A DNA stretch of 64,000 nucleotides from an uncultured bacterium (GTDB lineage Bacteria; Edwardsbacteria; AC1; EtOH8). The notes beneath the pieces were generated by a model. That model saw only the letters and a list, made by a program, of their open reading frames with translations. It did no database searches and had not been told where the DNA came from. Location: NCBI GenBank assembly GCA_963780225.1, contig CAWAAX010000003.1, forward strand, positions 24,193 through 88,192, read 5' to 3'. Shown in pieces: positions 5,544 through 45,556 of the stretch. Each line of letters begins with the position of its first letter. The stretch's first letter is position 1. The position numbers were made by a program, and so were the translations under genes.

Positions 5544-6221
5544 ATGCCCGCAGCTATTGATGCCACAAATATCGGCAGGATATTCAAAGCCCCCAAAGGG
5601 GATCTCAAGGTTTTGTCCGGGCTGACTCTAACCATCGGAAAAGGGGAGACCATAGCCATCACCGGAGCCTCAGGTTCCGGCAAATCAACGCTGTTACAGA
5701 TCCTGGGATGTTTAGACCGGCCCACTTCCGGGCAGCTCACCATAGACGGACGGGAAACCGCCGGCCTTTCGGATCATGAATTGGCGTCGCTGAGGAACAA
5801 AAGCATGGGCTTCGTCTTTCAGTTCCACCATTTGCTGCCGGAATTCTGCGCCTGGGAAAATGTGGCTCTGCCGCTTTTAGTGCGGGGTCAGTCCCTTGGG
5901 TCGGCTGAGGGAACAAGCCGGAAGATACTCCGTGACCTGGGGCTGGAGGAAAGAGCTGAACACAAGCCCAACGAACTTTCGGGCGGAGAGCAACAGCGGG
6001 TGGCCATTGCCCGGGCCATGGCGGCCCGGCCCTTGGTCTTGCTGGCCGATGAGCCCACCGGCAACCTGGACCGGGCCACGGGACAGAACGTGGCTCAGCT
6101 TTTATGGGACCTCAACCAAAACACCGGAATAGCATTGGTAATAGTCACCCACAATCAGGAAATAGCCCAAAGGGCCCAAAGAACATTGGAATTGAAGGAC
6201 GGAAAACTGTGGACCAAATAA
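5544..6221 (+). CDS. ABC transporter ATP-binding protein (LolD/MacB-type)
   Basis: Walker [10 protein letters not shown], signature LSGGEQQR, Walker [12 protein letters not shown]; the ATG directly abuts the stop of the MFS gene. Confidence 0.8.
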
Positions 6222-6949
6222 AAGAACGGCAGACCCTAAAGACTGAGGACATCTTTAAAAGCTATAAAAAACACCGGGCGGTGAACGGGATCTCCCTGGA
6301 GGTAAAACAGGGCGAGGTGGTCGGCCTGCTGGGGCCCAACGGGGCCGGCAAGACCACCACCTTCAACATCATCACCGGTCTTTTGAAACCTGACTCCGGC
6401 AAGGTGCTTTTAGACCAGACCGAGATTACCGGGCTGCCCATGTACCAGCGGGCTAGGCTGGGGCTGGGATACCTGACCCAGGAAGCTTCGGTCTTTAGAA
6501 AATTGTCGGTGGAGGACAACATCATGGCCATTCTGGAAATGATGCCGCTGAGCAAGGAGCAGCGGCAGGAACGATTGAAATCACTGCTGAGCGAACTCAA
6601 CATAGAGCACCTGGCCAAGAAGAAGGCCTACGCCATTTCCGGCGGGGAGAGAAGAAGGGTGGAAGTGACCCGGGCCCTGGTCACCAATCCGGCTTTTTTG
6701 CTTCTGGACGAGCCCTTTACCGGGATCGACCCCATAGCCCGGGCCGACATCCAGCAGGTGGTGGTCAAGCTTAAGGAGCGGGGGATCGGGGTACTGATCA
6801 CCGACCATAACGTTCGGGAGACACTGGAGATCACCGACCGGGCCTATGTGATTTACGAAGGAAAAGTGTTTGCCTCGGGCACGCCTCAGGAGATAGTGGA
6901 CCACTCCGGAGCCCGGGAAAAATTTTTAGGAGAGAAGTTTACCCTGTAA
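6209..6949 (+). CDS. lptB: LPS export ABC transporter ATP-binding protein LptB
   Basis: Walker A GPNGAGKTT, ISGGERRR, LLLDEPFTGIDP and an LptB-type C-terminus. I place the start at the in-frame GTG at 6209, because the ATG at 6104 lies inside the preceding gene. Confidence 0.8.
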   Translation: MDQIKERQTLKTEDIFKSYKKHRAVNGISLEVKQGEVVGLLGPNGAGKTTTFNIITGLLKPDSGKVLLDQTEITGLPMYQRARLGLGYLTQEASVFRKLSVEDNIMAILEMMPLSKEQRQERLKSLLSELNIEHLAKKKAYAISGGERRRVEVTRALVTNPAFLLLDEPFTGIDPIARADIQQVVVKLKERGIGVLITDHNVRETLEITDRAYVIYEGKVFASGTPQEIVDHSGAREKFLGEKFTL

Positions 6950-7947: not shown

Positions 7948-8213
7948 TTATGTTCTTTTCTTTTTGTGCCGCCGCTTCATTTGAAGGCAAGCTTGCTTAG
8001 CTAAGGGCAGGCTCCAAAAAGAACCAAAAGCTACGCCTTTGGCGGGCCACGCTTACGCTAAAGCTCTCAGCGGGCCGCGTTGCGCTTCTCGTTGATGACG
8101 GGCTTGTCTGAACTCGGGCTTTGGCCAAGCCCTCAAACATGCCAGACAAGCTTTTTCCGCCATCAACTGCGATGCTCACTGATCGTTTTAACGCGACTAC
8201 CGGGTTTAGTAAC
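7948..8213 (+). repeat. Dispersed structured repeat, copy 1 (diverged, with an insertion)
   Basis: Aligns by eye with 45334-45556 and with the reverse complement of 21950-22168. Shared blocks include GGGCTTGTCTGAACTCGGGCTTTGGCCAAGCCCTCAAACA and CAACTGCGATGCTCACTGAT. Confidence 0.75.
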
Positions 8214-20364: not shown

Positions 20365-20688
20365 AAAATCAAAAGGCAAAAATCAAATTAGTTGTGTAAT
20401 TACATTGTGAACGCGTTTAGTTGTTTATAGGACCCTCCTTTTCATTAACAGCCGCCTCCGGAATCCTCCTCCGTTTGCTTTCTGGCTTCGTTCAGAATGC
20501 GGCGGACAAGGCACCGGGGCGGCTTTGTTTTTTTTATACTCATCATGGGGTTATTTTGCTTGATTTTGTCCTTCTTTGGTAGTATGCTTAGAGTATATTT
20601 AAAAGCAAGTTTTTCATCTTTGATCTTACTATGTTTTGGGTCGAAAAGAGGCTTAAATATATAGACATATATATGGACAAAATATGTA

Positions 20689-20717
20689 TTGACATCAATA
20701 TAACAATATGATAATAT
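20689..20717 (+). promoter_or_regulatory. Sigma70-like promoter for fic (TTGACA-17-TAATAT)
   Basis: TTGACA at 20689-20694, a 17-nt spacer, TAATAT at 20712-20717. Confidence 0.55.
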
Positions 20718-20729
20718 TATGTTTACAGC

Positions 20730-20771
20730 GGACATATTAAAGGACATGTATGAGGACATATAATTCGACAC
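20730..20771 (+). promoter_or_regulatory. Four 12-nt-phased GGACAT-type iterons overlapping the fic start codon
   Basis: GGACAT at 20730, 20742 and 20754, and CGACAC at 20766, with an exact 12-nt period; related AGACAT / GGACAA / TGACAT words lie at 20663, 20675 and 20690. Confidence 0.6.
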
Positions 20772-21943
20772 ATCCTTGGATAAAATTCAACATAGACCTC
20801 CGCCCAACCCCGCCGCAATTATGGATGTCGCTAGGCGAGGCCTCATCAAAGTGCGAACATATTGCCGGTGTGCCATTGCGCCCCCAAACAGCCAGGGAAA
20901 TGCATCTGATCTACCTGGCCAAGGGCGTGGCCGCCACTACTGCCATAGAAGGCAATTCCCTGTCGGAAGAGCAGGTCCTTCAGCATATGGATGGCACGCT
21001 TAAGCTGCCGCCGTCAAAGGAATATCTGGCCCAGGAAGTGGAAAATATAATTACGGCCTGCAATCAGATAGGCGAAGGTTTGCACAACGGTGGTGTTGAG
21101 CTTACTCCGGAACGAATAAAAGAATTCAACCGGCAGGTGCTGAATAAACTTACGCTGGAGAAGGATGTTGTGCTGGGGGAGATCCGGACGCACTCGGTGG
21201 TGGTGGGTAATGTTTACCGGGGGGCGCCGGCCGAGGATTGCGGGCATCTGCTGGAACGTTTATGTCAGTGGTTAAACAGCGATGACTTTAAACCTGTAGC
21301 AGGCATGGAGACGGTCTATGCCATCATCAAGGCCGTAGTGGCTCATGTTTACCTGGCCTGGATACATCCTTTCGGCGACGGCAACGGACGCACCGCCCGC
21401 CTGGTGGAATTTCAGATACTATTGTCCGCCGGAGTGCCCACCCCGGCGGCCCATCTGCTGAGCAATCACTATAACCAGACCCGCACCGAATACTACCGCC
21501 AGCTTGATTCGGCCAGCAAGACCGGCGGCGAGATAATTCCTTTCTTGTCGTATGCTGCGCAGGGGTTTGTTGACGGTCTGAGGGAACAGCTGGAACGCAT
21601 CCGAAATCAGCAATGGGATGTTACCTGGGAAAATTACGTCCATGACATGTTTCACAGCAGGATCAGCCGTTCCGATATCCGGCAGAGAAACCTGGTCCTG
21701 GATATTTCCCATTCCCAAAAGCCAGTGCCGCCCCCAAAGATCGCCGAACTTTCGCCCCGGCTGGCCAGGGACTACGCCGGCAAAACATATAAAACGATCC
21801 AACGCGATCTGAATGCCATGGAAAAAATGAACCTGATAGAACGGACAGCAGACGGGGTTAGGGCCAAGAAAGAAACCATACTGGCTTTCCTGCCTTGGAA
21901 GAACATCAGTAATGATCATCCAGCCAGCTCGGAAAACTTGTAG
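20750..21943 (+). CDS. Fic-family protein (class II, auto-inhibited AMPylase type)
   Basis: Active-site motif HPFGDGNGRTAR; N-terminal inhibitory motif TTAIEG, which fits (S/T)xxxE(G/N); C-terminal wHTH-like tail. Confidence 0.9.
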   Translation: MRTYNSTHPWIKFNIDLRPTPPQLWMSLGEASSKCEHIAGVPLRPQTAREMHLIYLAKGVAATTAIEGNSLSEEQVLQHMDGTLKLPPSKEYLAQEVENIITACNQIGEGLHNGGVELTPERIKEFNRQVLNKLTLEKDVVLGEIRTHSVVVGNVYRGAPAEDCGHLLERLCQWLNSDDFKPVAGMETVYAIIKAVVAHVYLAWIHPFGDGNGRTARLVEFQILLSAGVPTPAAHLLSNHYNQTRTEYYRQLDSASKTGGEIIPFLSYAAQGFVDGLREQLERIRNQQWDVTWENYVHDMFHSRISRSDIRQRNLVLDISHSQKPVPPPKIAELSPRLARDYAGKTYKTIQRDLNAMEKMNLIERTADGVRAKKETILAFLPWKNISNDHPASSENL

Positions 21944-21949
21944 ACAATA

Positions 21950-22168
21950 GGCACCAACCCCGGTTGTCGCGTTAAAACGATCAGTGAGCATCGCAGTTGA
22001 CGGCGGTTAAAAGCTTGTCTGCATGTTTGAGGGCTTGGCCAAAGCCCGAGTTCAGACAAGCCCGCCGGCGACGAGAAGCGCAGCGCCCGGAGAGTTTTAA
22101 GCGACGAGCTTTTTTCTTTTTGGTTCTTTTTCTTAGTTGGCGGTACAAAAAAGAAAAAGAACACAATT
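21950..22168 (-). repeat. Dispersed structured repeat, copy 2 (inverted orientation)
   Basis: The reverse complement is near-identical by eye to 45334-45556. Confidence 0.8.
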
Positions 22169-22273
22169 GCGTCTATAGTTACGTTTTCACCAAAATCGCT
22201 ATATTCTTTATACTTTTTCCGAGCAAGATAGATAGACATTACACCAGTAATCTTTAGCTAAAAAGGAGCAGCC

Positions 22274-23293
22274 ATGGAACGCATCGTCCAATTGCTGAAG
22301 GACCTGGAGGCCATCCATTCGCCCTCCGGCTATACCGACGAAGTCACAGTCACATCGCCGAGCTATGCCAGAAGAACGGGATAAAGACCAGGCTCACCAA
22401 CAAGGGCGGCACTTTTGTGCGGGAACCACAATGCCCCCAAGCTGGTGGTATCGGGCCATGTGGATACCCTGGGCCTGATGGTCAGCGGCATCAACAGCGA
22501 CGGCAGCCTGGCCTTCACCAAGATCGGCTCGCCGGTGCTGGCCTCGTTCGAGGGCGAGTACGTCACCATCATCACCTCCGAGGACAAGAAGTTCCGGGGC
22601 ACCCTGCTGTTGAACAACCCGGCGGCCCACGTTAATAAGGAGGCGGACAAGGCAGAGCGCAAAGCCGACAGCATGCACATCCGGCTGGACGCCGAGACCA
22701 GCAAGAAAGAGGAGACCGAGAAGCTGGGGATCCGCACCGGGGATTTCATCTGCTTTGACCCCCGCTTTGAGTACACCGATTCCGGGTTCATCAAGTGCCG
22801 GTTCCTGGACGACAAGGCCGGCTCGGCCGCCATGCTGGATGCCCTGCTGGCGCTGGGTTCCAAGGAGCTGGAAAAACTGCCGGTGACCTTCTTCTTCTCC
22901 AATTACGAGGAGGTGGGCCACGGGGCCTCGGCCGGGGTGCCCCCAAGCGCAACCGAGATGCTGGTGGTGGACATGGGAGTGGTGGGCGAGAAGGTGGACG
23001 GGGTGGAGACGGCGGTCTCCATCTGCGTCAAGGATTCCAACGGGCCATACGACTATGCCATCAGGCAGAAGCTCTCCCGGCTGGCCACGGCCCACGGCAT
23101 TGCCCACCGGCTGGACGTGTTTCCCCTGTACGGCTCGGACGGGAGCGCGGCCCTGGCGGCCGGGCACGATATAAGGGTGGGGCTGATAGGCCCCGGGGTG
23201 AGCGCCAGCCACGGGATGGAGCGGACCCATTTGAAGGGGTTGAACGCGGCCCGGGACCTGCTGATGGCGTATATCAATGATACGTTGAAATAG
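22274..23293 (+). pseudogene. M42-family peptidase with two compensating frameshifts
   Basis: The N-terminus MERIVQLLKDLEAIHSPSGYTDEV reads in the frame of 22274 and stops at 22382-22384. HIAELCQKNGIKTRLTNKGGTFV reads in the adjacent frame. NHNAPKLVVSGHVDTLGLMV onward is back in the first frame and runs to 23293. Confidence 0.8.
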
Positions 23294-23312
23294 AACAGCG
23301 CAAACTGAAATG

Positions 23313-23340
23313 AAAAAGCCGGGCATTGCCCGGCTTTTTA
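23313..23340 (+). terminator. Intrinsic terminator after the M42 peptidase gene
   Basis: AGCCGGG-CATTG-CCCGGCT hairpin flanked by AAAAA and TTTTT. Confidence 0.6.
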
Positions 23341-23342
23341 TC

Positions 23343-23371
23343 TTGATTTTGTCAGGCTTACGGTGTAGAAT
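23343..23371 (+). promoter_or_regulatory. Sigma70-like promoter of the tcmP-gp37 cassette (TTGATT-17-TAGAAT)
   Basis: TTGATT at 23343-23348, a 17-nt spacer, TAGAAT at 23366-23371; the AAGGAG RBS and an ATG at 23397 follow. Confidence 0.55.
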
Positions 23372-23396
23372 AAACTCGATATTAAGGAGATATATT

Positions 23397-24230
23397 ATGG
23401 CTAAAAGTATACATGATGAAGTTGGGTACTGGTCTGAAATAAAGCTGGACATTATTAAAGACTATGCTCAAGAATACACAAAAATATTAAGCAAGCAAAA
23501 ATTGAGCTACATCTATATTGATGCATTCGCTGGTTCCGGTATTCATGTATCTAAAAAAACGGGCGAATATATTCTTGGTAGCCCAATGAATGCACTCCTC
23601 GTCACCCCACCTTTTAATGAATATTATTTAATTGACCTCGATCAAGATAAAACTGATAATTTGAAAGAATTAGCCCAAGGCAGGAAAGATGTATTTATTC
23701 ACGAAGGCGATTGTAATAAAATTCTTAAAGGCAGCGTATTCCCTAAGGCAAAATGGGAAAATTATCGCAGGGCATTGTGTATTCTTGACCCCTACGGACT
23801 TCATTTGAATTGGGATATAATATATACTGCAGGGCAGATGAAAAGTATTGAAATATTCCTTAATTTCCCGGTAGCAGATATGAATCGCAATGTCCTGTGG
23901 GGTGATCCCACTAAAGTAGAAAGCAGCCAATTAGAGAGAATGAATGCTTATTGGGGTGATGATAGCTGGCGCAAAGTTGCATATTCCACAGAAGGAAATT
24001 TTTTAGGTTACGAAGAGAAGCAAGGAAATGAAGCAATTGCCAAAGCTTTCCAAAAACGGCTAAAAACCATCGCTGGTTTCAAGTACGTACCAAACCCCAT
24101 TCCAATGCGTAATAAAAACAATGCAATTGTATACTATCTATTTTTTGCATCTCAAAATCCAACGGCTTCAAAAATAGTTAATCATATCTTTACAAAATAT
24201 AAAGATAGAAAAGGCAGCAATGGCACTTAG
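23397..24230 (+). CDS. tcmP: Three-Cys-motif partner protein TcmP
   Basis: The N-terminus GYWSEIKLDIIKDYAQEYTKIL and the IDAFAGSG block match my recollection of the TcmP family. It lies directly upstream of, and overlaps, a Gp37/Gp68 gene. I moved the start to the ATG with a strong RBS rather than the track start at 23310. Confidence 0.7.
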   Translation: MAKSIHDEVGYWSEIKLDIIKDYAQEYTKILSKQKLSYIYIDAFAGSGIHVSKKTGEYILGSPMNALLVTPPFNEYYLIDLDQDKTDNLKELAQGRKDVFIHEGDCNKILKGSVFPKAKWENYRRALCILDPYGLHLNWDIIYTAGQMKSIEIFLNFPVADMNRNVLWGDPTKVESSQLERMNAYWGDDSWRKVAYSTEGNFLGYEEKQGNEAIAKAFQKRLKTIAGFKYVPNPIPMRNKNNAIVYYLFFASQNPTASKIVNHIFTKYKDRKGSNGT

Positions 24231-24948
24231 TAAAATCGAATGGACCGAATCAACCTGGAACCCTGTGACCGGGTGCACCAAGGTCAGCCCAGGGTGTCTG
24301 AACTGCTACGCCGAAAGAATGACCAGGCGCTTGCAGGCCATGGGCCAGCCCAATTATAAGCACGGGTTTAACGTGGCGGTTCACAGCCGTTCCCTGCAGC
24401 AGCCATTGGTATTAAAAAAGCCGCAGATGATATTCGTGAATTCCATGAGCGACCTTTTCCACGATAAGGTGCCGTCGGAGTTCATTCTCCGGGTTTTCGA
24501 AGTAATGGACAAGGCATTTTGGCACACCTACCAGATACTAACCAAACGGGCGGACCGTCTTATTGAAATGGATGCTTTCATGGACTGGCCGGACAATGTA
24601 TGGATGGGGGTCAGCGTAGAAACAAGCGAATATAAAAACCGCATAGAGATGCTAAAACGGTGTGGCGCCAAAGTAAAGTTTTTATCATGTGAGCCTTTGC
24701 TTGGTAGTCTTGGCAAGCTGGATCTCAACGGAATAGATTGGGTTATTGCCGGGGGGGAATCCGGACCAGGGGCCAGGCCGGTTGACCCAGAATGGGTGGA
24801 AGAGATACGGGATCAATGCCTTAAAGCGGAAGTGCCATTTTTCTTTAAGCAATGGGGCGGGTTCAACAAGAAAAAGGCGGGCCGTTTGCTGGATGGGAAG
24901 GTATGGGACCAAATGCCAAAGCAGTATCAGTCCGTGAATTATGCTTAA
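24220..24948 (+). CDS. Phage Gp37/Gp68-family protein (DUF5131)
   Basis: IEWTESTWNPVTGCTKVSPGCLNCYAERM, FVNSMSDLFH, QILTKR, FLSCEPLLG, WVIAGGESGPGARP and FFFKQWGG are hallmark blocks; it overlaps tcmP by 11 nt. Confidence 0.85.
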   Translation: MALSKIEWTESTWNPVTGCTKVSPGCLNCYAERMTRRLQAMGQPNYKHGFNVAVHSRSLQQPLVLKKPQMIFVNSMSDLFHDKVPSEFILRVFEVMDKAFWHTYQILTKRADRLIEMDAFMDWPDNVWMGVSVETSEYKNRIEMLKRCGAKVKFLSCEPLLGSLGKLDLNGIDWVIAGGESGPGARPVDPEWVEEIRDQCLKAEVPFFFKQWGGFNKKKAGRLLDGKVWDQMPKQYQSVNYA

Positions 24949-25002
24949 ATCAATCTAACTTTTAACCGCTTTCAAAACATTGACCTAAAATTAAAAAGCC
25001 GG

Positions 25003-25160
25003 GCATCGCCCACCGGCTGGAGGAATTTTCCCTGTACGGCAAGGGTGAAGCTGATCGGGCTGGGGTCTCAGCCAGCCACGGGATGGAGCGGACCCATTTG
25101 AAGGGGCTGAACGCGAGCAGGGACCTGCTGATGGCCTATGTGAAAGAGACGTTGAACTAA
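25003..25160 (+). pseudogene. Relic duplicate of the M42 peptidase 3' end
   Basis: The segment translates in frame as HRLEEFSLYG...GVSASHGMERTHLKGLNASRDLLMAYVKETLN*. This parallels 23107-23293 (HRLDVFPLYG...GVSASHGMERTHLKGLNAARDLLMAYINDTLK*) with an internal deletion. Confidence 0.75.
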
Positions 25161-25294
25161 CCACACTTTCCGCCGATTAACGTCAGGCTATACTGCCGGC
25201 GGGCATTTACAACAGGCTACCGGACATCAGACTTTACTGATTTTGGACAATCTTTTAACTTTAGAGGAATAAAACAACTCAGGGAGGTTGGTAC

Positions 25295-40841: not shown

Positions 40842-42417
40842 ATGCTAGTCGTCACCCCCCAGCAGATGCAGGAGATAGACGCCCGGGCCATCAAGAAGTA
40901 CAAGGTGCCGGGCCTGACCCTGATGGAGAACGCCGCCCGGGCCCTGGCCGAAAAGGCGCTGGAGATGCCTGCCCTAAATTCTCCGGCCACGGTCTGCATA
41001 GTCTGCGGGCCGGGCAACAACGGCGGCGACGGCCTGGCCGCGGCCCGGCTGCTGAAGGAACAGGGCTGCGAGGTGCAGGTCTTCCTGCTTGGTTCAATTT
41101 CCGATCTTAAAGGCGACGCCAGAACAAACGCCAAAAAGCTTAAGGCCGCCAAAATAAAAATAAATGAGATCAAGAGCGGGGCGGGCCTGACGGCGTTGAA
41201 GGCCGGCTTCAAAAGATCAGGCATGGTCATAGACGCCATCTTCGGCACCGGGTTCAAGGGAACTGCCGGCCACCGCCTAAGCGGGGCAAGCAAGCTGGCG
41301 GGTCAGGTGATAGAAGCCATCAACTCCTCCGGGCGTCCGGTGCTGTCGGCCGACATTCCCTCCGGGGTCAACGGCGAGACCGGCCAGGTGGCGGGCCCGG
41401 CGGTCAAGGCCGATGCCACGGTAACCATGGGATTGCTGAAAACCGGATTATTGTTCTATCCCGGAAGATCCCTGGCCGGGGAAATATCCGTGGCCGACAT
41501 AGGCTTTCCTCCAAAAGCCATAGCCGAGCAAAAGACCGGAACAAATACCATCGACCAGGAATACGTCCGGCAGTTACTGCCCAGCCGGCCGCCCGACGCC
41601 TACAAGGGAAGCTGCGGAACCGTCTTAGTACTGGCCGGCTCGGCGGGGATGACCGGGGCGGCCCGGCTGGCCTCGCTTTCGGCTTTGCGCTCCGGGGCCG
41701 GGCTGGTGTACCTGGGGATCCCGGAGAGCCTGAGCGATGTGATGGAGTCCAAGCTGACCGAGGCCATCATCAAGCCCCTGCCGGAGACCCGCACCAGGAC
41801 CCTTTCTTTGCAGTCGTTGGACAGGATCAGGGCCCTGATGACCAAGTCCGATGCGGTCCTGATCGGCCCGGGGCTTTCCACCCATCCGGAAACATTGGAG
41901 CTGGTTCAGGCGGCGGTCAAAAGCCTGAAGGCCCCGGCCGTGCTGGATGCCGACGCCTTGACCGCCCTGTCCGGCAATGTCCAGTTGCTTAAGACCCAGG
42001 TCCCGCTGGTATTGACCCCCCATTACGGGGAAATGGCCCGGCTGACCGGAAAGACCATCGCCGAAATAAAAGCCGACCCCATGCGGGCGGCCGGGGAATT
42101 CGCAACGTGAATACAATAAAACGATGGTGCTGAAGGGCGCCCCCACCGTCATCGCCGGGCCATCGGGAAACATCTGGATCAACACCACCGGAAACAGCGG
42201 CATGGCCACGGCCGGCTCGGGCGACGTGCTGGCCGGGCTGATAGCCGGGTTGCTGGCCCAGGGCCTTCTTCCGGAAAATGCGGCGGCGCTGGGGGTCTGG
42301 CTGCACGGTCTGGCCGGGGACCTGGCCAGGGAAAACAAGACCGAGTACTGCCTGCTGGCGGGGGATATCTTAGATAATCTCCCTGCGGCTTACAAAAAAC
42401 TGATGGAGGTTTTATGA
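40842..42417 (+). pseudogene. nnr: Bifunctional NAD(P)H-hydrate repair enzyme Nnr, single frameshift near 42100
   Basis: YjeF_N block GPGNNGGDG and carbohydrate-kinase block GSGDVLAG. The reading frame breaks at the TGA at 42108 and resumes as (REYNKT)MVLKGAPTVIAG in the next frame. Confidence 0.8.
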
Positions 42418-42776
42418 TGGTTTGGCTGGGATACGGATTGCTGGGGGCTTTGGCCGGAGTGGTCAGCGGATTGTTCGGCATCGGCGGGGCGGTGGTGATC
42501 GTGCCGGTCCTGGTGCTGCTGTTCAAGTTCTCCCAGCATCAGGCACAGGGCACCTCGCTGGCCACACTGCTTCTGCCCATCGGGCTGCTGGCGGCCTGGC
42601 GCTATTATTCGGCCGGACACGTCAACGTCAGGGCGGCCGGGGTGATGGCGGTATGCTTCTTCTTCGGCGGCCTGCTGGGGGCGGTGCTGGCCGAGAAGAT
42701 CTCCGGGGTCTGGCTGCAGCGCTCGTTCGGGGTCTTCCTGCTGGCCATTGCGGTCAAGATGATACTGGCGAAATAA
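42414..42776 (+). CDS. TauE/SafE-family half-size membrane protein
   Basis: GLFGIGGAVVIVPVL...AQGTSLATLL pattern; 120 aa, about 4 TM helices; ATGA overlap with the nnr stop. Confidence 0.7.
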   Translation: MMVWLGYGLLGALAGVVSGLFGIGGAVVIVPVLVLLFKFSQHQAQGTSLATLLLPIGLLAAWRYYSAGHVNVRAAGVMAVCFFFGGLLGAVLAEKISGVWLQRSFGVFLLAIAVKMILAK

Positions 42777-42836
42777 ACATGATAGATGGCCGCACCACCA
42801 TTGCTGACGGGGAAAAGATGAAGGAAAGTTTGTAAT

Positions 42837-43190
42837 ATGCCTATTTACGAATACATCTGCCAGGACTGCAAAAAGCGGGTCAGCCTGCTGATCCTTAATC
42901 CCTCCACCTATGGAATCCCCAAGTGTCCCAACTGCAGCAGCCAAAGACTGGAGCGGCTGATGTCCCGGTTCCGGACCCTCCGGTCCGAGGAGTCAAGGAT
43001 GGAACGGCTGGCCGACCCTTCCTCTTTTTCCGGGGTGGACGAGAACGACCCGGCTTCCGTCGCCAAATGGGCCAAGAAGATGGGCAAGGAGCTGGGGGAT
43101 GAGGCGGGCGAAGGGTTTGACGAGATGGTAGACCAGACCATAGAGCAGGATATCCATAAAAGCGACAGCACGGAAGAATCGTTTGAGTAG
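42837..43190 (+). CDS. FmdB-family zinc-ribbon protein
   Basis: MPIYEYICQDCKK...CPNCSS (CxxC...CxxC) with an acidic C-terminal tail. Confidence 0.8.
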   Translation: MPIYEYICQDCKKRVSLLILNPSTYGIPKCPNCSSQRLERLMSRFRTLRSEESRMERLADPSSFSGVDENDPASVAKWAKKMGKELGDEAGEGFDEMVDQTIEQDIHKSDSTEESFE

Positions 43191-43205
43191 CCGAACAGGG
43201 AGGCT

Positions 43206-43384
43206 GGCAACGATGGAAACGTTGGAGTGGTCCGGTAAGGGACCGGGCAACGTTGGAAATGCAGGAGGGGTCTGGCAAGGGGCTGAGCGATGATGGAAAC
43301 GCTGGAGGGGTCCGGCAAAGGGGCCGGGCAACGGGGGAAACGTTGGAGGAGCCAAACAAGGAAGACCGGCAATGATGGAAGACC
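43206..43384. repeat. Tandem array of about 4.4 degenerate units of about 41 nt
   Basis: Units start at 43206, 43246, 43287, 43327 and 43369 (partial). The shared core is GGCAACGATGGAAACGTTGGAGGGGTCCGGCAAGGG. Unit lengths are 40, 41, 40 and 42 nt, so there is no reading-frame periodicity. Confidence 0.8.
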
Positions 43385-45333: not shown

Positions 45334-45556
45334 CAATTATGTTCTTTTTCTTTTTTGTACCGCCAACTAAGAAAAAGAACCAAAAAGAAAAAAGCTCGTC
45401 GCAAAATACTATCCGGGCGCTGCGCTTCTCGCTGACGGCGGGCTTGTCTGAACTCGGGCTTTTGCCAAGCCCTCAAACAGGCGCAGACAAGCTTTTAACC
45501 GCCGTCAACTGCGATGCTCACTGATAGTATTTAACGCGACAACCGGGGTTGGCACC
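45334..45556 (+). repeat. Dispersed structured repeat, copy 3 (reference copy)
   Basis: A 12-bp hairpin pairs 45341-45352 with 45369-45380. A long composite stem pairs 45434-45450 with 45484-45506 and encloses the GGGCTT/AAGCCC hairpin. No conserved ORF is shared among the copies. Confidence 0.8.

Follow-up and report, generated by a model that had tools for sequence, protein, structure and literature searches.

A stretch of 64,000 nucleotides from an uncultured Edwardsbacteria genome (contig CAWAAX010000003.1, positions 24,193 to 88,192; hereafter the window) carries the 3′ end of an M42 peptidase gene twice, with a small AT-rich cassette of two genes, tcmP and DUF5131, between the copies. 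Our comparison with related loci suggests that the second copy is an older end of the same gene, left behind as a recombination scar. The reading we favour, at a probability of roughly 45%, is an allele exchange anchored in the peptidase gene with an illegitimate join on its right side, which displaced the resident gene end. This type of event is termed homology-facilitated illegitimate recombination, and its outcome C-terminal displacement. The tcmP-DUF5131 cassette itself was probably not the thing that inserted.

Along the forward strand the locus consists of the peptidase gene, a perfect hairpin, a promoter-like site, tcmP, the DUF5131 (Gp37/Gp68-family) gene and the second peptidase gene end, which with its leading core sequence spans 25002-25160 (Table 1). 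We refer to the 3′ end of the functional gene (..YINDTLK*) as the A end and to the relic copy (..YVKETLN*) as the B end, and to the junctions at 24983/24984, 25011/25012 and 25160/25161 as j1, j2 and j3. The recurrence of the gene end at 25012-25160 had been noticed in a first-pass annotation and holds on pairwise alignment, where the local score of 138 compares with 17.0 ± 2.4 (maximum 26) for shuffled sequences. The copies, of 188 and 149 nucleotides (nt), are 86-87% identical and align in two blocks, 23096-23134 with 25002-25040 (39 nt, 87%) and 23195-23292 with 25062-25159 (98 nt, 86%). The 19-bp flanking repeats described in the same annotation are also present, with three 19-mers at up to three mismatches in the window against 0.05 expected. 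However, the true repeat is 27 nt long (23305-23331, CTGAAATGAAAAAGCCGGGCATTGCCC, versus 24985-25011, CTAAAATTAAAAAGCCGGGCATCGCCC; 89% identical), one copy preceding the cassette and the other the second gene end, and the left 19-mer is the left arm and loop of the terminator-like hairpin. The sequence GGCATYGCCC occurs exactly three times, at 23096-23105, 23322-23331 and 25002-25011; the first of these does lie inside the gene where the duplication starts, one nucleotide before the position originally given (23097-23106).

The GC content is 0.64-0.68 in the 3′ part of the peptidase gene, drops to 0.35-0.39 over tcmP, recovers to 0.45-0.54 over DUF5131 and is 0.60 in the relic. Together with the matches to TIGR04474 and PF07505 this dip agrees with the earlier description of an AT-rich insert carrying tcmP and a gp37/gp68 gene. 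The list of open reading frames (ORFs) and family searches showed only these two genes between the copies in the window, with no recombinase or integrase gene, as had also been noted, and no foreign backbone. No integrase-like ORF was seen near the locus, and an Rfam scan of the window gave no match at the gathering thresholds. We scanned genomes and metagenomes with the peptidase and obtained 160 peptidase loci, referred to by L numbers; second gene ends were counted over about 155 loci, and motifs and hairpins were checked over 233 loci.

Table 1. Positions of the features discussed, counted from the first nucleotide of the window.
Feature	Position	Strand	Remarks
Fic-domain gene	20750-21943	+	PADLOC SoFic model, E = 2e-59; within the 20464-22251 segment
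M42 peptidase gene, A end ..YINDTLK*	22275-23293	+	PF05343, E = 7e-69; two frameshifts
GGCATTGCCC	23096-23105	+	inside the peptidase gene; start of similarity to the relic; gene-side partner of j2
A end, 3′ end of the functional gene, 188 nt including the stop codon	23106-23293	+	type also found in L001, L081, L082 and L153
Left 27-nt repeat	23305-23331	+	8-nt spacer plus hairpin left arm and loop
Perfect palindromic hairpin AAAAAGCCGGGCATTGCCCGGCTTTTT	23313-23339		-20 kcal/mol, z = -4.2; loop holds the second GGCATTGCCC
Promoter-like site TTGATT-17-TAGAAT, 5′ of tcmP	23343-23371	+	kept in L001, L082 and L003; precedes different cargo in L119
tcmP (PADLOC PDC-M41A)	23397-24230	+	TIGR04474; PDLC04638, E = 9e-81; AT-rich, hypervariable
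DUF5131 / Gp37-Gp68 family (PADLOC PDC-M41B)	24220-24948	+	PF07505, E = 3e-103; PDLC04639, E = 4e-120
DUF5131 terminator, left arm and loop	24964-24983	+	j1: homology to L001, L081 and L003 ends at 24983, within the loop
Right 27-nt repeat	24985-25011	+	hairpin left half only, ending GGCATCGCCC (25002-25011); joined directly to gene-internal sequence at j2
Relic B end of the peptidase gene (..YVKETLN*)	25012-25160	+	38-nt and 1-nt deletions; undeleted in L082 at 2517-2714

The sequence of the second gene end points to a decaying relic. It is 39 nt shorter than the A end, the result of separate deletions of 38 nt and 1 nt, and the approximately 18 nt between them are read in another frame. The description of this copy as internally deleted is therefore correct, but it is in frame overall only. 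A comparison of non-synonymous and synonymous changes (dN/dS, 51-65 codons) showed that the excess changes in the relic are mostly non-synonymous, consistent with neutral decay, in numbers too small for dating. Fixed differences that set the B ends of the window and a second contig, L082, apart from every A end occur only within the final 20 nt or so; there are none over the first 175 nt or so. In a gene-conversion comparison of the A and B copies three sites matched the copy in their own genome, two matched the other genome and nine were mixed.

At its C-terminus the relic retains the KETL(N) found in more distant relatives. Behind it, L082 has gttgatctca and a 28-nt motif, and both also follow the unduplicated gene of L003 (gttgaYctca). 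This motif agrees at 24 of its 28 positions (score 36 versus 14.2 ± 1.9 for shuffles) and is found in only those two places in the 233 loci. Because it combines the ancestral KETL state with an L003-type flank in L082, the relic would be the positional equivalent of the ancestral gene end, and we interpret it as an older, displaced end of the same peptidase gene. A simple tandem duplication was rejected, since it would have placed behind the relic the spacer and hairpin found behind the functional end, and these are missing there. After the relic stop codon the window has yet another flank, the ancestral one having been replaced, which makes j3 a third breakpoint specific to the window. The segment from the relic stop to the DUF885 gene (25161-25294) has no counterpart in L082 or in the DUF885 contigs. 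The only close homologue of this DUF885 gene (88% identical) is on L161 and L162, contigs that start about 95 nt upstream of the gene with a different upstream sequence.

L082 comes from another assembly and is 88-94% identical to the window. Its layout is the same, and j1 and j2 agree base for base: the DUF5131 terminator breaks off in its loop, CC comes next, and after it TTAAAATGAAAAAGCCGGGCATTGACC, joined to ACCGGCTGGA... from the gene. The relic of L082 has its full length, which shows that the deletions in the window came later, and no integrase lies between the two gene-end copies of this contig. For comparison, the intact form of the DUF5131 terminator in L001 folds at -17.3 kcal/mol.

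The cassette also stands behind peptidase genes that are not duplicated. L001 (UBP2 UBA5202) has the gene, hairpin, promoter, tcmP, DUF5131 and the intact terminator without a relic, and the promoter of the neighbouring carboxyltransferase gene lies about 60 nt beyond that terminator. L003, with a peptidase 73% identical, has a native gene end and about 190 nt of native flank before the hairpin, promoter, tcmP, DUF5131 and terminator, and its right junction is that of L001. The cassette is thus resident cargo of the locus in several lineages that have no duplication. The A end, moreover, is the normal end of all close relatives, with or without a cassette or relic. The original proposal was of an element that entered the gene at its 3′ end and brought a replacement end with it. 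Of this, the displaced gene end stands, with its KETLN terminus and the flank shared by L082 and L003, whereas the cassette as the integrated thing is not supported, given L001, L003 and L153.

Between the peptidase and carboxyltransferase genes the spacer measures 1.3-3.6 kb where both flanking genes are present, and its cargo differs almost every time. PDC-M41, the tcmP and DUF5131 pair, occupies it in L001 and L003. In L081 (5516-7769) a HigB-like toxin gene and an HTH-M78 (IrrE-like) fusion replace the hairpin, promoter and tcmP, followed by a DUF5131 gene kept at 94% nucleotide identity. L002 carries an ImmA-like gene, a helix-turn-helix (HTH) gene and two beta-lactamase-like genes, L083 and L084 an HTH gene and lipoprotein genes, L085 an NYN-domain gene, L086 and L087 an ASCH-like and a GNAT gene, and L153 a secreted protein; in L119 the promoter-like sequence precedes unrelated genes. 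Three alternative alleles (L081, L082 and L119) occur in one metagenome. The pattern identifies the spacer as a hot spot for small AT-rich defence and toxin-antitoxin cargo in the UBP2/Edwardsbacteria relatives.

We also observed a mosaic gene end in L119. Up to alignment column ~880 its peptidase gene agrees with the close group at 91-100% identity; for the final ~140 nt the figure drops to 82-87%, and other cargo follows. This is what a homologous crossover inside the peptidase gene would leave, the gene end having moved together with the new cargo; crossovers in the 3′ part of the gene would make the end travel with the cargo. In the window's own gene a sliding identity comparison with the relatives gave no clear mosaic boundary at GGCATTGCCC and no resolvable breakpoint. 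By its flanking genes the window groups with L081 and L082 within the close group, the MoxR gene being 94% identical to that of L081 versus about 90.5% for L001.

In the favoured reading the exchange would have taken place in an ancestor shared by the window and L082. The incoming allele would have brought a complete A end, the terminator hairpin, the promoter, tcmP and DUF5131, entering on the left by homologous recombination within the peptidase gene. On the right the join would have been illegitimate, with the cassette's own terminator cut in its loop at j1 and the left half of the peptidase terminator placed behind it as a 27-nt copy. At j2 the 10-bp identity GGCATYGCCC, common to the hairpin loop and the gene, would have served to fuse this half-hairpin with internal sequence of the resident gene, and the resident B end would have been pushed downstream and not replaced. 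Later, in the window, the relic would have decayed through its two deletions, the DNA past its stop codon would have been exchanged again, tcmP swapped for another allele and the peptidase gene have gained two frameshifts. The junctions, 27-29 nt apart, look illegitimate: each lies in a hairpin loop, j2 falls at the 10-bp identity and there is no target duplication. The alternative named in the first-pass annotation, a microhomology-mediated duplication, accounts for this anatomy at least as well as site-specific integration. The junctions, their recurrence in a second contig, the ancestral flank behind the relic, the varying cargo and the mosaic gene end are observed; how many events there were, in which direction they ran and that no dedicated recombinase took part, we infer. 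The same mechanism, with the outcome that 3′ ends are orphaned behind modules that have newly arrived, has been described for type VI secretion system (T6SS), Rhs and contact-dependent inhibition (CDI) loci (PMC5361080).

Several points weigh against this account. The 27-nt half-hairpin between j1 and j2 is unexplained in one step, and needs either a templated patch or a donor cassette with two hairpins. With a near-star phylogeny among the close relatives the events cannot be put in order, and L001, L081 and L153 could instead have lost a relic. A genome with an undisturbed B-type gene end, the empty site in which the gene would end in the 25012-25160 version and which the first-pass annotation had proposed to look for, was not found among the 160 peptidase loci. 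Homology-facilitated illegitimate recombination is also rare in experiments (PMC5361080). Finally, an independent duplication in L002 and a true phage attachment site elsewhere favour a site-specific process.

A second gene end was seen in three of the loci, L002, L082 and the window. In L002 (10880-12210) a complete gene is followed by ImmA/CapP-like metalloprotease and HTH genes, both on the minus strand, and then by another gene end of 175 nt (~90% identical) with the native terminator behind it; no integrase lies between the two gene-end copies. The L002 repeat starts about 29 nt further downstream than that of the window and its cargo is unrelated, and it is an independent duplication of the peptidase 3′ end. 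In the IMG/VR proviruses L171, L172/L173 (IMGVR_UViG_3300022758_000384) and L174, which are integrated at M42 genes, the gene end is followed by a tyrosine integrase, an ImmA-like protease and an HTH repressor. One contig of 56.8 kb carries the gene end near each of its ends as a direct repeat of 153 nt with 100% identity. These proviruses show the M42 gene end to be a bona fide attB in some bacteria, and because L002 shares the M42 end, ImmA and HTH genes with the proviruses it looks like a stripped prophage. We found no paper describing an M42 gene-end attachment site in proviruses. Searches of GenBank phages with the peptidase C-terminus returned only unannotated fragments at 45-48% identity, which were uninformative.

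The main rival to the favoured reading is that the window locus has the same origin, although we regard this as unlikely. In this scenario a tyrosine-recombinase element, either a prophage or an integrative and conjugative element (ICE), entered the M42 3′ end at or near GGCATYGCCC, supplied the A end and later lost its integrase and nearly everything else, leaving an attL/attR scar in which B is the original end. Direct repeats of the target gene end around an insert are the classical architecture of integration at a gene 3′ end, and both L002, a separate case within the clade, and the proviruses fit it. The restriction of the A/B differences to the last ~20 nt would fit an identity segment between element and host DNA, and DUF5131 homologues are common on viral contigs. 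However, none of the window, L082 and L002 has an integrase between the copies, and the two events in the clade differ in repeat boundary and cargo. The reading is weakened further because the supposed insert is native to the locus in L001 and L003; their shared native right junction behind unduplicated genes is hard to derive if the cassette was borne by an element. Every member of the close group has the A end, the cassette-free L153 among them. About 20 clade-level loci, a small sample, contained no insertion with an integrase at the peptidase gene, and the viral M42 ends are only 54-58% identical and belong to an AT-rich, unrelated lineage.

The short distance between j1 and j2 raises the question of whether the duplication arose within the genome by template switching, a reading we consider improbable. 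From an L003-like stem chromosome, a replication fork would have stalled in the DUF5131 terminator loop, used the left half of the peptidase terminator as template for about 24 nt and switched into the gene at the 10-bp identity, doubling the segment from the gene end to the cassette; deletions or collapses would have followed. Two junctions in hairpin loops, one of them at a 10-bp microhomology with a patch templated nearby, are readily accounted for in this way, as are the lack of fixed A/B differences over most of the gene end and the native status of the DNA between the copies in relatives. A collapse between two cassette copies would also give the L001/L081 form, with its intact terminator and native right flank. 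The relic has the ancestral flank, whereas the functional end has the hairpin directly behind it; because of this difference the duplication must predate the deletion shared by the close relatives and have persisted despite direct repeats of 1.7 kb. In addition, neither L082 nor the window has a second cassette after the relic, and L002, with foreign AT-rich genes between its copies, is left unexplained.

The hairpin behind the peptidase gene bears on a further possibility. It starts 19 nt past the TAG stop codon, has a perfect 12-bp stem with a 3-nt loop and T5 on both strands, and scores as an intrinsic terminator; it can also be described as an 11+5+11-nt palindrome. It is kept in L001, L082 and L153, the last without a cassette; L003 has it too, with a different loop. 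By its appearance it would serve the peptidase gene as a bidirectional intrinsic terminator. The idea that the hairpin is a dispersed repeat or att site was rejected for the sampled data, as it occurs only at this locus in the window and the 233 loci. An ATG in its left flank (...AAATGAAAAAGCC...) opens a frame that in the window (23310-24230) runs in frame into tcmP and in L082 (2505-2717) crosses the intact relic as a 70-codon ORF (MKKPGIDHRLDVF...); having no evident ribosome-binding site, this frame is probably coincidental.

We considered, as very improbable, that the 1.9-kb unit 23106-25011 is an integrase-less mobilisable element that exists as a circle and enters either by a RecA-dependent single crossover via the 188-nt gene end or by a recombinase acting in trans at the 11+5+11-nt palindrome. 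The circle junction would read …GCCGGGCATYGCCC/ACCGG, with DUF5131 before it. Elements of the cis-mobilisable type that lack an integrase exist. A single insertion of exactly this unit at GGCATYGCCC of a B-end gene would be enough to produce the entire locus, the palindrome is built of arm, spacer and arm like recombinase core sites, and its loop 10-mer recurs in the gene. Yet the hairpin is equally well an ordinary bidirectional terminator, it is found nowhere else in the 233 loci, and tcmP-DUF5131 pairs of other phyla lack it. L001 and L003 have the cassette without a second hairpin or a relic, and no candidate recombinase was identified. Only slightly less doubtful is the broader idea that 23106-25011 is a minimal integrase-less mobile defence cassette, carrying a host-gene 3′ end and a palindromic recombination site and moving as a mini-circle through RecA or a recombinase borrowed from prophages that use the M42 end as attB. 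If true, RecA entry of such a mini-circle would be a natural form of "insertion-duplication" that never damages the target gene. Last, an assembly chimera or collapsed strain mixture, which would have refuted the annotated architecture and could be suspected from the evidently metagenome-assembled source, the nearby contig breaks in relatives (L161, L162) and the two peptidase frameshifts, is excluded for practical purposes because L082 has both junctions with an undeleted relic, and the exact junction identities, at most 14 nt, are too short to mislead an assembler.

The two genes of the cassette are adjacent and co-oriented and match both models of the PADLOC candidate system PDC-M41 strongly, which makes the pair a candidate anti-phage system. 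The alleles of tcmP (window 23397-24230, L001 3238-4128, L082 854-1747, L003 11177-12007) match different PDC-M41A models. The window TcmP is only 26-34% identical to those of L001, L082 and L003, whereas the L001 and L082 proteins are 76% identical to each other and DUF5131 is 88-95% identical among the relatives. The swapped segment extends from the ribosome-binding site and start codon to the first DUF5131 codons, with 84-94% nucleotide identity in the promoter and ribosome-binding region upstream and in DUF5131 downstream. Within TcmP the motifs YIDAFAGSG and DPYG are invariant.

The predicted structure of TcmP, with a mean predicted local distance difference test (pLDDT) score of 88.5, has a class I methyltransferase fold; its best PDB matches are RlmJ/DUF519, the m6A methyltransferase RlmJ being nearest (template modelling (TM) score ~0.55, E = 1e-6). 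By sequence, neither TcmP nor DUF5131 has relatives in the PDB. From the swapped alleles beside a conserved partner and the RlmJ-like model we infer that TcmP may be the specificity or modification subunit of a restriction-modification-like pair. In other phyla, tcmP-DUF5131 pairs lie in defence islands beside a GmrSD gene, a helicase/PLD-domain cluster, and HEPN and NTP_transf_2 genes. DUF5131 is listed as a subgroup of the radical-SAM superfamily (PMC9477430). The literature on TcmP and DUF5131 that we found consists of annotation mentions, with no functional or anti-phage study, and exact look-ups of the window DUF885 and DUF5131 proteins returned nothing on record.

Despite its domain match, the reading frame of the window peptidase is disrupted. 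Two frameshifts 62 nt apart, -1 near 22349 and +1 near 22411, both outside homopolymers, lead to a stop after 36 codons; the protein is otherwise 95% identical in amino acids to those of the intact 339-aa genes of L001 and L081. The gene is either a pseudogene or affected by sequence error. Overlapping or abutting same-strand ORF pairs at 5544-6949 and 42390-43372 may be further frameshifted genes and bear on the question of whether the peptidase frameshifts are errors.

C-terminal displacement is known from rhs, CDI and T6SS effector-immunity loci, where Kirchberger et al. 2017 (PMC5361080) attributed it to homology-facilitated illegitimate recombination, citing Jackson 2009, de Vries & Wackernagel 2002 and Prudhomme 2002. 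As in those systems, a conserved 5′ part of the gene would serve as homologous anchor for a new 3′ end that arrives with linked cargo, the former 3′ piece ends up downstream, where it decays, a recombinase gene is lacking and the alleles are polymorphic in populations. Unlike in those systems, the anchor here is a housekeeping-type peptidase and not a toxin gene, the exchanged end keeps the same function, the cargo is a candidate anti-phage pair, and the junction involves two terminator loops and an unusually long 10-bp identity.

The layout can also be compared with that of integrated elements. The prophages e14 and phage 21 are said, from work by Hill in 1989 and Wang in 1997, to integrate at the 3′ end of E. 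coli icd with a replacement end. The window shares with them, and with the M42 proviruses, a complete gene with an alternative end, an insert and a direct repeat of the last 150-250 nt; the target family is that of the proviruses. In contrast to these prophages, the insert is only 1.7 kb, has no integrase, excisionase or phage gene and is also found behind unduplicated genes in relatives, and the repeat boundary is not shared with L002. Cis-mobilisable elements (CIMEs) reportedly occur at the fda 3′ end of Streptococcus thermophilus, as described by Pavlovic and colleagues in 2004. They similarly are small integrase-less DNA segments between attL and attR at a gene 3′ end, derived from or mobilised by integrase-bearing relatives, whereas no cognate ICE or prophage was found in the small sample of clade-level loci here and att function is putative. 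Integron cassettes are likewise variable, promoter-proximal and bounded by a hairpin, with their recombinase encoded outside the cassette, but here there are no attC R/L boxes, extrahelical bases or GTTRRRY core, no intI or attI was found, and the palindrome is perfect and terminator-like.

Defence-island hot spots between core genes are a general phenomenon in E. coli and Pseudomonas pan-genomes. The locus resembles them in its fixed flanking genes, highly variable small defence and toxin-antitoxin cargo, frequent lack of mobility genes and exchange through flanking homology. It differs in lying in an uncultivated candidate phylum and in bearing the physical scar of one non-homologous join. 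With PDC-M41, and the related PDC-M30, it shares strongly matched, adjacent and co-oriented A and B genes; the A gene is here swapped between highly divergent alleles in a conserved frame, and an anti-phage role is a candidate one both for the family and for this copy. We see the locus as a further instance of processes already known: the exchange of cargo at a hot spot, accompanied by C-terminal displacement or possibly by a degraded att scar.

A second variable segment of 1.8 kb lies on the other side of the peptidase gene (20464-22251) and is absent from L081, which has 231 nt in its place. It consists of an AT-rich leader, the Fic gene and a copy of a ~230-nt repeat, and has the character of a defence-type insertion. 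The repeat has three copies in the window, 93-94% identical, at 21945-22175 and, on the minus strand, 45334-45552 and 8081-8204. When folded it forms a long stem (-84 kcal/mol, z = -3.95) with a terminator-like hairpin behind it, and it matches no Rfam family. The copies lie among housekeeping genes, one of them overlapping the end of the Fic ORF.

The main value of the locus lies in its unusually legible junctions and in the allele swapping of TcmP. On the favoured reading it would be a base-resolved case, in uncultivated bacteria, of defence modules exchanged at a chromosomal hot spot without a mobility gene, leaving a datable relic. With two independent scars in the clade and true prophage attachment sites elsewhere, the M42 peptidase 3′ end is a recurrent target of recombination. 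For TcmP and DUF5131 the analysis provides a testable lead, as the pattern of allele swapping is that expected of a specificity or modification subunit.

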